A stretch of 64,000 nt of DNA from Octopus vulgaris (taxonomy: Eukaryota). A program made the position numbers and the translations under genes. The notes below the pieces were generated by a model. It was not told the DNA's origin. It was given only the letters and a program-made list of their open reading frames with translations, and did no database searches. Each line of letters begins with the position of its first letter. Position 1 is the stretch's first letter. Shown in pieces: positions 3,869 through 6,838 of this stretch. Where the stretch lies: the NCBI GenBank assembly GCA_951406725.2, contig OX597825.1, forward strand, positions 74,090,001 to 74,154,000, given 5' to 3'.

Positions 3869-6120
3869 CTACGCCGCCCGGTTAATTGTCAAATATTCAT
3901 TTACCTATACAATAAGCATAGTCCTCTTCATATTGACTACTGTACTGATACACTAAAGGTTTCTGTTTACATGAACCTTCAAGGAACATCTCACCGTTAT
4001 ATAATCTTACCTCCACTCCTCCACCATCATTGCTCTGTAACATTCAATTAGCCGTTATTTAATTTTTTCCTACTGAGATGGTTGGCCTCTCAAAGTCTCT
4101 GCATCTGTTGATGTTTATTCATAATAGTCTCAATTTATAAAAAAAAAGACATGTTTAACATTACGTAGCTGTGACTTCATCATTCTGGAATGTCTAAAAA
4201 AGTCGTAGCTACCTCCACTCGTTCTCCGACTACAAAGAAAAATCTACATCAGAGCAATGGAAGGCATTTTAGACTTTAGAAAGCAAAAAGAGTATTGAAA
4301 CAGTAAATCAATTTATTTAATCAATAGCTGTCCTAAGATAACTCGATACATTCGGACTTAGCTTCAAACGTCAAATAAACATCGACACAAACGGAAACGT
4401 ACTGTAATAGCACTAAAGATGGCGGCTACAAAGAATAAAGACAAATCGATACAAACCAAGGTGGTGAATTAGCAGAGTTCTTAGAGTGTTGGGTGAAATT
4501 CCTTTGCGTTAATTAATGCGACGCTCTGAGTTCAATTCCTGGTGAGTTTAACTTTATTTTAACTCGCTTCGATGAAAACCAAAGTTGATAAGAATGAAGT
4601 ACCACTTAAGTATTGTACTTGAACTAAATTTTATCCCTTTCTTTTGTTCTATAAATCATTTATTTGAAGGGACACGAAGTGCGTTCCCGTCATGAACGCA
4701 CTGATATTATGTGGGAAGAACTATGTGAATTACACAAAATAATCTTATAATATAGATATGATGTAACAACACCAGATAGAAAATGTAGCATTAGAAAAAA
4801 TAAGCATTTACTGAAATATCAGAGAGAGAGAGAGAGAGAGATCGTAAAAAGACTTGTTAGAAAAGGTTCAACGTTTGAAGGAAAAAAAAACATGAACGCT
4901 TCTTTAAATAGAAGGAACGATTTATAAGAAGAACGGCGATAACATTATATAGAAGATAAAATAAATCAAACATAATAGATATTAGAATCAGCTCCAAAAC
5001 TAGAAATAGAAATATACTGGGATGAGTTATGAGGAAAATGTCAGCCACAGCAATAACATAAATAAATAAATAATGATAATGGAAGAAATATATTGAAGGA
5101 AAGAGCAGGAAATAGAAGAACAAGAATAACAGAATATATCAAGTGATGAATGAACTTAATGTTGAGAGTAAAGAGTAACAGAAAAACTATAGGAATTTGT
5201 AGATTGTCAGACATTTGACAGAAATATCTTACGAATACACATATGGTATGTCTCTCAATAAACTGATCACGCAACAACGAGCAAGCCTGTGTGTGGTCGT
5301 TAGACATGCTAGAAACAGAAACGACATCTCTTCCATATAATATCTTGTTCTGAATGAAGAACATACAGAATAATGCTGTTATCGTTTCTTATTCTTGCCC
5401 AGGAAGAAAAATGCAGTGGCCATGACCGCTTTTGAGGGTCACTAAGAATGTCGGGAGAAAAAAAAGAAGAAAGGTATTCTCAAACCGCAGACCTGAACTG
5501 AACGCTTGCAACCGAGAGAATTTAGCTAAACACCTCGTGACCCTTGTGATGCAATTAAGCAGAGCAACTAAATAAGTGTACTAAAATTGCGTCAGAACAG
5601 GAGCGCCTTACATATTCTTGGTAGTGAGTTACTTAATAGCCAGTAACAACATCGATCAGAGAAACAAGCAGACTGGTCCATGGAAGGCAGAACAACACTC
5701 ATACCTAGATTAGAAATATAGATTTCAGAAAAAATTATGGATAAATTCAATTTAGTCTTCTAACAATATCATTGCCTCTAAGTTTATTGTTTTATCTGTT
5801 GGAAATGAAAGCAACGCTCCTTTCAAATTACACACTTTCATCTTAGGAAAATACAGAGCTGATATTGTTAAAGAAAATAAGATCACTGGATAGTTAGAGC
5901 TAGAGCGCTTTTGATCAAAGTGTTGCACTAAGGTCTCTAAGAAGGAGGCTCGGCTGGCTCATTGGTGTTGGCGCCAGAAAGCTAAAGAGGGTACATTAAT
6001 ATCTGATGGGAATTTATTAAGAAATAAATATCAGTCACCTTGAAGTTTGAAACAATGCTACCTTCAATATTTACATTATTTACATTTGACGGATATTTGT
6101 CATCTTCTTGTTTGTTGTTA

Positions 6121-6165
6121 ACACAACGTTTCGGCTGATATACCCTCTAGCCTTCATTAGGTGTC
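6121..6165 (-). ncRNA. Type I minimal hammerhead ribozyme motif (one core substitution)
   Basis: ACAC-CTAATGA-A-GGCTAG..TCAGCC-GAAAC-GTT-GTGT. Confidence 0.65.
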
Positions 6166-6433
6166 TTGCCGACGGGCATATGGCGTAGTGGTTAAGAGCG
6201 TGGGCTACTCACACCAAGATACCGAGGTCGATTCCAAGCAGTGACCTGAATAATAATAATAATAATAATAATAATAATAATAATAATAATAATAATAATA
6301 ATAATAATAATAATAATAATAATAATAATAATAATAATAATAATAATAATCATAATAATAACAACAACAACAACAACAACAACATCGAAAAATACCTTAG
6401 GAATGAGATCCCAGGTTAAAAATTTCCCCCCAA

Positions 6434-6478
6434 GACACCTCTTGAAGGCTGGAGGGCATATCAGCCGAAACATTGTGT
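6434..6478 (+). ncRNA. Type I hammerhead motif, degenerate core
   Basis: ACAC-CTCTTGA-A-GGCTG..CAGCC-GAAAC-ATT-GTGT; combined with the inverted copy it points to a CTGATGA/GAAACGTT ancestor. Confidence 0.55.
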
Positions 6479-6838
6479 TAACAATAAACAAGATGAGGAC
6501 AAATATTCGTCAAATGTAAATAATGTAAATAATGTACATAATCTCTCCTCTCTTAAATATAGAACTGTAATACTACCTTCAGTTTTTTTTTTCTAATTAT
6601 TTTTCTCCATCTTGCAAAATTTCTCTCGAAGAACATCATCGGCAAGGCAATTTTGAGGAAGGGAAATATAGACCACGTGCTTCAACCAGGTGTCACTAGG
6701 ATGACGAGTCAGTATGGCAGGGTAGCATGAAACATGTTTTCGCTAATTGTTTTCGGTGAGAATGTCGACGCGAGACAGAGATAAATAGTTTCTTGGTCTG
6801 CTATCTTACCGGCTTGTGGTACTTCTAAAACGTGTCTA

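Follow-up and report, generated by a model that had tools for sequence, protein, structure and literature searches.

A short hammerhead-bearing insertion of Octopus vulgaris as the highly probable solo pseudo-LTR of a Penelope-like element with a tRNA-derived head

A 502-bp insertion in the genome of Octopus vulgaris joins a tRNA-like head with Pol III-type boxes to a hammerhead ribozyme, and raises the question of whether such a repeat is a SINE in its own right or a piece of a larger retrotransposon. It lies in a stretch of 64,000 nucleotides (the window; assembly GCA_951406725.2, contig OX597825.1, positions 74,090,001 to 74,154,000 of the forward strand), and window positions are counted from the first letter of this stretch. 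The original prediction was that of a non-autonomous, ribozyme-bearing SINE mobilised by the machinery of Penelope-like elements (PLEs).

Two 13-bp direct repeats with one mismatch, seen in the sequence and by repeat scan at 6054..6066 and 6569..6581 (plus strand), form the left and right target-site duplications (TSDs) and flank the 502 bp of 6067-6568. The repeat scan also detects inverted arms at 6065-6168 and 6431-6534 (104 nt, 90% complementary) and the microsatellites (AAT)x37.7 at 6249-6361 and (AAC)x8.3 at 6360-6384. The inverted arm proper (6067..6168, minus strand), which from the repeats is read as a second, shorter cDNA of the 5' end of an ORF, corresponds to about nt 47-148 of the 184-nt segment that ends the insertion, without the 36-nt tail, and carries a minimal type-I hammerhead with the mutated core CTAATGA (6120..6165, minus strand). 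All further features are on the plus strand. The tRNA-derived head (6168..6249), delimited by alignment to tRNAs and by 5' ends, marks the start of the pseudo-LTR (pLTR) and 5' UTR; its tRNA position 1 is 6174, and the direct arm starts at about -6 (6168-6169), the hot spot of 5' ends in the family. Sequence and A/B score place the A box, TGGCGTAGTGG, a consensus match, at 6181..6191 and the B box at 6226..6235, the latter with a lesion at 6227 (T of the GTTC motif to G) where most family copies keep the consensus. A (TAA)n(CAA)n spacer whose length varies (6250..6384, from the repeats) separates the head from the 'tail' segment (6385..6568), which by tblastn and ORF continuity comprises the last 18 nt of a 5' UTR and the first ~164 nt of a PLE ORF, with its predicted ATG at 6403-6405. 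Inside it lies the direct copy of the minimal type-I hammerhead (6434..6479, from the sequence), mutated in core and palindrome: it reads CTCTTGA in the core and GAAACATT, and is broken; the predicted family cut site falls after 6474. The last 36 nt (6533..6568), delimited by the arm ends on the model of PMC11167929, are a PLE 'tail' extension and by analogy likely represent the stretch separating two internal RT start sites. The predicted order of TSD, inverted arm, head, (TAA)n(CAA)n, hammerhead and extra tail is thus present in full, and the two hammerhead copies do carry different lesions, both disabling. Some other repeats were noted in the window: a 53-bp tandem repeat of 5 copies with 99% matches (6839-7103), 260 bp 3' of the insertion; a 184-bp tandem (10574-11000+), with 2.3 copies in the scanned stretch, that resembles a common interspersed repeat at other loci; and a 31-nt stretch that weakly matches the tail end on the minus strand (48238-48268; E 0.009), which may be a decayed fragment.

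The insertion belongs to a large family. When the genome (2.8 Gb, 227 contigs) was searched with an 18-mer from the 3' end of the insertion, 6214 exact matches were found and none for the reversed control, which excludes chance occurrence. Among the first 90 of these matches by position (contig C1; a few overlap earlier loci or one another), the inverted arm is present in 66, and a TSD scoring at least 8 in 47; a control with the boundary shifted gave 4 of 88. The inverted arms end at segment nt 134-157 in 63 of 69 cases, leaving a tail of 25-48 nt, with end positions blurred by a 9-nt repeat. A tail follows the head on the same strand at 28 of the 30 best head matches and at 19 of 20 position-sampled head matches, which rules out a chance nested insertion. 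Genome-wide, therefore, the head-hammerhead linkage, the inverted 5' copy with its short tail and the TSDs recur as anticipated. Allowing for 7-10% divergence, the family may perhaps number 20-40 thousand copies by our estimate. Three loci considered as a head-less sister family (L088-L090) proved instead to be one disrupted copy of the same family.

The sequences on both sides of this short unit identify the element to which it belongs. At least 170 nt upstream of the head are common to 10 of 30 head-anchored loci and encode the C-terminus of a GIY-YIG-type domain. An RT query gave 9602 candidates in the genome, and in 20 of the 30 best RT-anchored loci the head stands right after the ORF stop, the spacing in the unit being ORF stop, ~30 nt and then the next head. 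On the other side, of 30 ORF-start loci 23 show the segment passing without a break into the ORF body; its frame matches the N-terminal part of a homolog with 55% identity, at 38-49% across the junction in the 11 loci compared, and tblastn of the N-terminus of homolog P0003 against the window stretch gives 44% identity (E 5e-9). A natural open frame of 569 aa matches RVT_1 (E 2.7e-6) and has 2923 homologs at E<=1e-20, which bear RVT_1 and in some cases Pfam GIY-YIG; the 569-aa frame itself has no Pfam GIY-YIG match, and a PDB sequence search returned weak RT matches only. One locus (L251) preserves a complete front end, head-TAA-segment-ORF, starting at head -5, and partial tandems occur at L236, L243, L245 and L260. 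Since the ORF is continuous on both sides, the unit reads head, (TAA)n, hammerhead-bearing ORF start, RT, endonuclease, stop and next head; and since the head follows a PLE ORF stop while the 'tail' is the start of the next ORF, the insertion is best described as a solo pLTR with an inverted arm. It is thus very probably a solo pLTR that stems from a Penelope/Poseidon-type retrotransposon and has a shorter, inverted copy of itself attached, a form of insertion already known for PLEs. The proposed dependence on PLE machinery is upheld, and the autonomous PLE expected to share its 3' segment exists. A separate non-autonomous SINE with a borrowed PLE tail is not upheld, as the autonomous PLE itself includes the head, the microsatellite and the hammerhead segment.

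Class membership was examined feature by feature. As in the Penelope/Poseidon group, there is a single ORF with a PLE-type RT and, at its C-terminus, a GIY-YIG domain; inspection of the frame shows RT and endonuclease joined without a CX2-5CxxC Zn-finger linker, an absence that the relevant part of PMC8557442 treats as distinguishing this group; there are pLTRs, partial tandems, an inverted 5' copy and a 30-40-nt tail; and the pLTR holds a minimal type-I hammerhead with a palindromic stem III. A tRNA-derived 5' head with A and B boxes is shared with SINE2 elements, but these are non-coding families having only the 3' tail in common with their partner, while here the whole sequence is that of an autonomous PLE. 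Non-LTR retrozymes consist of tandem units with intact hammerheads and have circular RNA, whereas the copy in the window is monomeric, has an inverted arm attached and is broken in both cores. Judged on sequence, the element is a PLE by every structural test run; for want of independence it is not a SINE, though the short copies resemble one and may be transcribed in the same way.

In the case of the head, its tRNA likeness follows from the alignment to tRNAs and from an A/B score above 400/400 shuffles, and not from dedicated tRNA searches: Rfam made no tRNA call on the head, and ARAGORN found nothing at default settings and only noise, which was discarded, at relaxed thresholds. Among 13 tRNA sequences of the genome (a partial isotype set), the best matches are two tRNA-Arg (z 7.7 and 8.4), and two intact copies attain A/B-box scores of 25 bits where no shuffle exceeds 18, in agreement with the Pol III-type head originally proposed. 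In the family head both boxes are at consensus and canonically spaced, while the acceptor and T stems are unpaired and the tRNA fold is lost. Other tRNA-SINE heads in the genome weakly resemble it (8-14 bits), so that capture of a tRNA-SINE is a plausible origin. Elsewhere, at L206 (138-2854), seven tRNA-Cys-like genes lie together, two of them with altered anticodons (aca, act).

Minimal hammerheads in PLE pLTRs were already known. The family hammerhead is not called by Rfam; among 68 arms in which it is recognisable, 43 have CTGATGA as core and 12 have CTGAAGA, giving 55 canonical cores, and 23 arms are wholly intact. The minimal type-I hammerhead originally proposed is upheld. A fold with stems I and II comes to -11.2 kcal/mol, a non-hammerhead fold being slightly lower (-12.6), and folding lends dimer cleavage no support, since the dimer minimum is not a two-core hammerhead arrangement. 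The genomic copies themselves offer a hint of self-cleavage: of 16 direct arms whose ends fall at segment nt 55-120, 7 have them at 89-95 (P about 0.002, computed with n=18), and at two loci (L240, L257) ORF sequence is joined to segment nt 89; at most 3 of the seven cut-site ends lie on palindromes that favour fold-back. In the Poseidon element of Anolis carolinensis, cleavage needed protein, insertion in vitro did not depend on the hammerhead, and none of the reads stopped at its site (PMC11167929).

The 5' ends of the copies concentrate at the head. They were counted in 75 head-containing arms from 59 loci, 50 of which reach +4; 34 of these 50 end within -14..+4 (30 within -7..+4), where 2.6-4.0 would be expected (P<1e-25), and 17 more arms end at +5..+20. 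Exact 16-mers tell the same story genome-wide, with 6712 matches in the head against 1108 about 45 nt upstream (6.1x; controls 2 and 0), and the loss of about 68% within 18 nt at the head start exceeds background 10-20 times. At three loci (L233, L237, L235) ORF sequence is joined directly to head -6 without fold-back, one shared origin being probable for the junctions at L233 and L237. A hairpin over head -14..+10, predicted at -8.8 kcal/mol, is stronger than any other 30-nt window over the final 300 nt of the upstream profile, and several junctions there are clear fold-backs, many being palindromic, so that RT stalling can inflate the pile-up; the hammerhead region folds almost equally well (-8.1 vs -8.8 kcal/mol) without a comparable pile-up. 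A TATAA word stands 28-24 nt upstream of the -6 site, a placement that fits Pol II and TATA-assisted Pol III alike, TATA-like words preceding many Pol III genes too. In three raw RNA-seq runs from an organism of the same label and one contig set, compared with L261, reads are equal on both strands and depth tracks the copy-number profile, with no pile-up of starts or ends at the head or the cut site, a pattern that speaks neither for nor against a start at the head. Separately, L233, L237, L235, L234, L240, L257 and L247 contain ORF 5' pieces that stop +196..+264 beyond the end of the segment, four of them at +233, and are fused there to head -6 or segment nt 89. This points to template jumping from one RNA end to another, or else to a mini-unit with an internal deletion that is rare.

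T4 runs are Pol III terminators. Only 19 such runs, at 18 scattered sites, occur in 69.7 kb from 56 ORF copies, where 138 are expected from base composition; none is common to the ORF copies over 2.3 kb, each site being occupied in at most 2 of 56. The majority-column ORF has 0 T4 against 2.6-3.0 in codon shuffles (P 0.03-0.04), and its absence has P~0.1 under order-1/2 Markov models; the deficit is thus modest when codon use is held fixed. Three other PLE families of the genome have 9, 8 and 2 T4 runs in 2.3, 1.7 and 1.6 kb, respectively. An outside control of 30 families, drawn from 51 of 77 related loci in other samples (long matches, near-duplicates left out), gave 162 observed against 141 expected, 2 of the 30 having none. 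One of these two, a related PLE (L321/L325), has a T4-free ORF over ~2 kb and a T-rich 3' UTR, without A/B boxes. Among 41 related loci with enough 3' sequence, an A/B pair scoring above its own shuffles was found only at L288 (20.2 vs maximum 18.2). This metagenome contig (2741-3120) holds an unrelated tandem PLE with the A/B pair ~90 nt past the ORF end, an AAT-rich spacer, a hammerhead inside the ORF start, and 2 T4 and no T5 per 2791-nt unit. It is a possible second case of the layout of the window PLE, one locus in 41 being a lead and not proof.

Taken together, these data make it probable that the insertion is a solo pLTR of a Poseidon-type PLE, reverse-transcribed from a start site inside the ORF, and that the 5' end of its RNA lay at a tRNA-derived, Pol III-type promoter. 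The placement of the RNA 5' end at the head is likely in itself, with a start predicted ~6 nt before tRNA position 1. Pol III, rather than Pol II, would then likely initiate, although the overall assignment of the initiating polymerase to Pol III has about an even chance of being right. A further proposal, that Pol III, starting at a tRNA/SINE head captured into the pseudo-LTR, transcribes the autonomous coding PLE over its full ~2.7 kb, the ORF having been purged of T4, is tentative and may well be wrong; translation of such an uncapped RNA would have to be cap-independent. Some of the RNAs would likely be cleaved by the hammerhead after segment nt 88, either in dimeric form or aided by protein. 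Two cDNAs would initiate at adjacent internal sites, at segment nt ~182 and ~140-157, as in Anolis Poseidon; RT copying from inside the ORF back to the RNA 5' end would yield a solo pLTR, and head-to-head joining of the two cDNAs by microhomology would produce the inverted arm, the tail and the TSD. Initiation in the 5' pLTR would give SINE-sized copies and initiation in a downstream tandem pLTR would give ORF-bearing ones, the short SINE-like copies being by-products of internal RT initiation. On the tentative reading of a coding PLE transcribed by Pol III, and because L288 has the same layout, the promoter switch may have arisen more than once and may account for elements such as Schistosoma SM-alpha.

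Alternatively, the head could be a passive SINE relic in the UTR at which RT stalls or folds back on the hairpin, transcription starting elsewhere; the stability of that hairpin, the many palindromic junctions, the 17 additional ends beyond +4 and the weak likeness to other tRNA-SINE heads, which makes capture plausible, all speak for it. It is nevertheless unlikely, as the hammerhead region is of similar stability and shows no such pile-up, the loss of copies at the head start is far above background, junctions without fold-back likewise start at -6..+3, the boxes have been kept though the stems decayed, and the ORF is without T4. The RNA could also start at the head from a Pol II core promoter, with the TATA-like word at the ORF stop, an initiator near -6 and the tRNA sequence as a downstream element. 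Besides the position of the TATAA word, this is favoured by the fact that Pol II normally makes coding RNAs, by PLE transcription beginning inside the pLTR in both studied cases and by one studied Penelope promoter overlapping a spliceosomal intron, which is a Pol II feature. In the available part of the TRIMp3 paper, autonomous partners are likewise argued to need Pol II (PMC10886601). A Pol II promoter leaves unexplained, however, the consensus A/B boxes at canonical spacing and the T4 deficit, and it is rather improbable.

The remaining alternative, that of a non-autonomous SINE independent of the PLE, which would have master copies of its own, be transcribed by Pol III and rely on the PLE in trans for its mobility, has been largely refuted, so that only a very small chance is left to it. 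SINE-sized copies carrying A/B boxes are indeed in the majority, and an internally deleted unit, running from the head to ORF nt +233 and then to the head again, exists at two loci. Yet all bases of the short form belong to the autonomous element, and a comparison of 30 short with 23 ORF-bearing copies indicates the same age (head divergence 7.5% vs 6.6%) and reveals no diagnostic alleles, 1 of 75 columns differing at a nominal p of 0.014. The Anolis element, moreover, requires RNA downstream of the RT start sites (PMC11167929), which the solo copies lack. A non-autonomous mini-master as the main source was rejected, since the mini-unit junction has 1 exact match genome-wide, an exact pattern that would miss diverged copies.

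A solo pLTR fronted by a tRNA-derived, Pol III-type head finds its closest structural relative in Anolis Poseidon, whose hammerhead extends over the ORF start and whose tail is set by two internal RT start sites (PMC11167929). The two elements share RT plus C-terminal GIY-YIG, the ORF-start hammerhead, internal RT starts, a 30-40-nt tail, and tandem, partial-tandem and inverted insertions, and inverted arms and tails are standard in PLEs as far as the relevant part of PMC8557442 describes them. Unlike Poseidon as described in PMC11167929, the window PLE has a tRNA-derived A/B head, a (TAA)n spacer and a 5'-end pile-up at the head. Schistosoma SM-alpha and Sj-alpha also place a Pol III-type promoter before a type-I hammerhead in a short repeat, but these are, in the portion of PMC6765202 available, non-coding SINE-like tandem repeats, while the window unit fronts a coding PLE and has a minimal, PLE-type hammerhead. 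Animal non-LTR retrozymes are likewise short, hammerhead-bearing and derived from PLE pLTRs; they are made of tandem units with a hammerhead in each, according to the accessible part of bioRxiv 10.64898/2026.07.22.740005, in contrast to the monomer with inverted arm and tRNA head of the window. A small-RNA-derived Pol III promoter in the terminal repeat of a retroelement is also present in the TRIMp3 elements Cassandra, Helenus and Ajax, all of them non-autonomous LTR elements in the available part of PMC10886601, whereas the promoter described here would sit in an autonomous coding element. SM-alpha and the non-autonomous TRIMp3 elements are the nearest promoter precedents. In the openly accessible literature searched, no PLE with a tRNA-derived pLTR promoter was found; the family could already be recorded in Repbase or Dfam, in subscription journals or in the repeat library that accompanies PMC13282606, a recent octopus repeat annotation.

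A tRNA-derived front that is likely its own Pol III promoter would be unusual for a protein-coding retrotransposon, and it makes two questions about PLEs testable, namely what drives pLTR transcription and what role the hammerhead has in vivo. Were the coding RNA made by Pol III, that would contradict the assumption that autonomous retrotransposons depend on Pol II, and would point to cap-independent translation. SINE-like ribozyme-bearing repeats could also arise straight from PLE pLTRs, with no borrowing of tails, and thousands of copies in this genome would be mis-annotated as SINEs.

As the copies of the window's PLE family are 7-15% diverged and no intact full ORF was found among them, the family is probably inactive at present. 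Other retroelements were encountered in the same searches. A 229-aa RVT_1 fragment of a different, non-LTR element adjoins a PLE copy at L057 (2162-2851). Four loci (L281-L283, L285) belong to a young Neptune-like PLE family with a Zn-finger linker, in which an open frame precedes upstream; with 16 copies bearing 781-aa open frames among 148 GIY-YIG matches, 95-98% alike, this family has probably been active recently.
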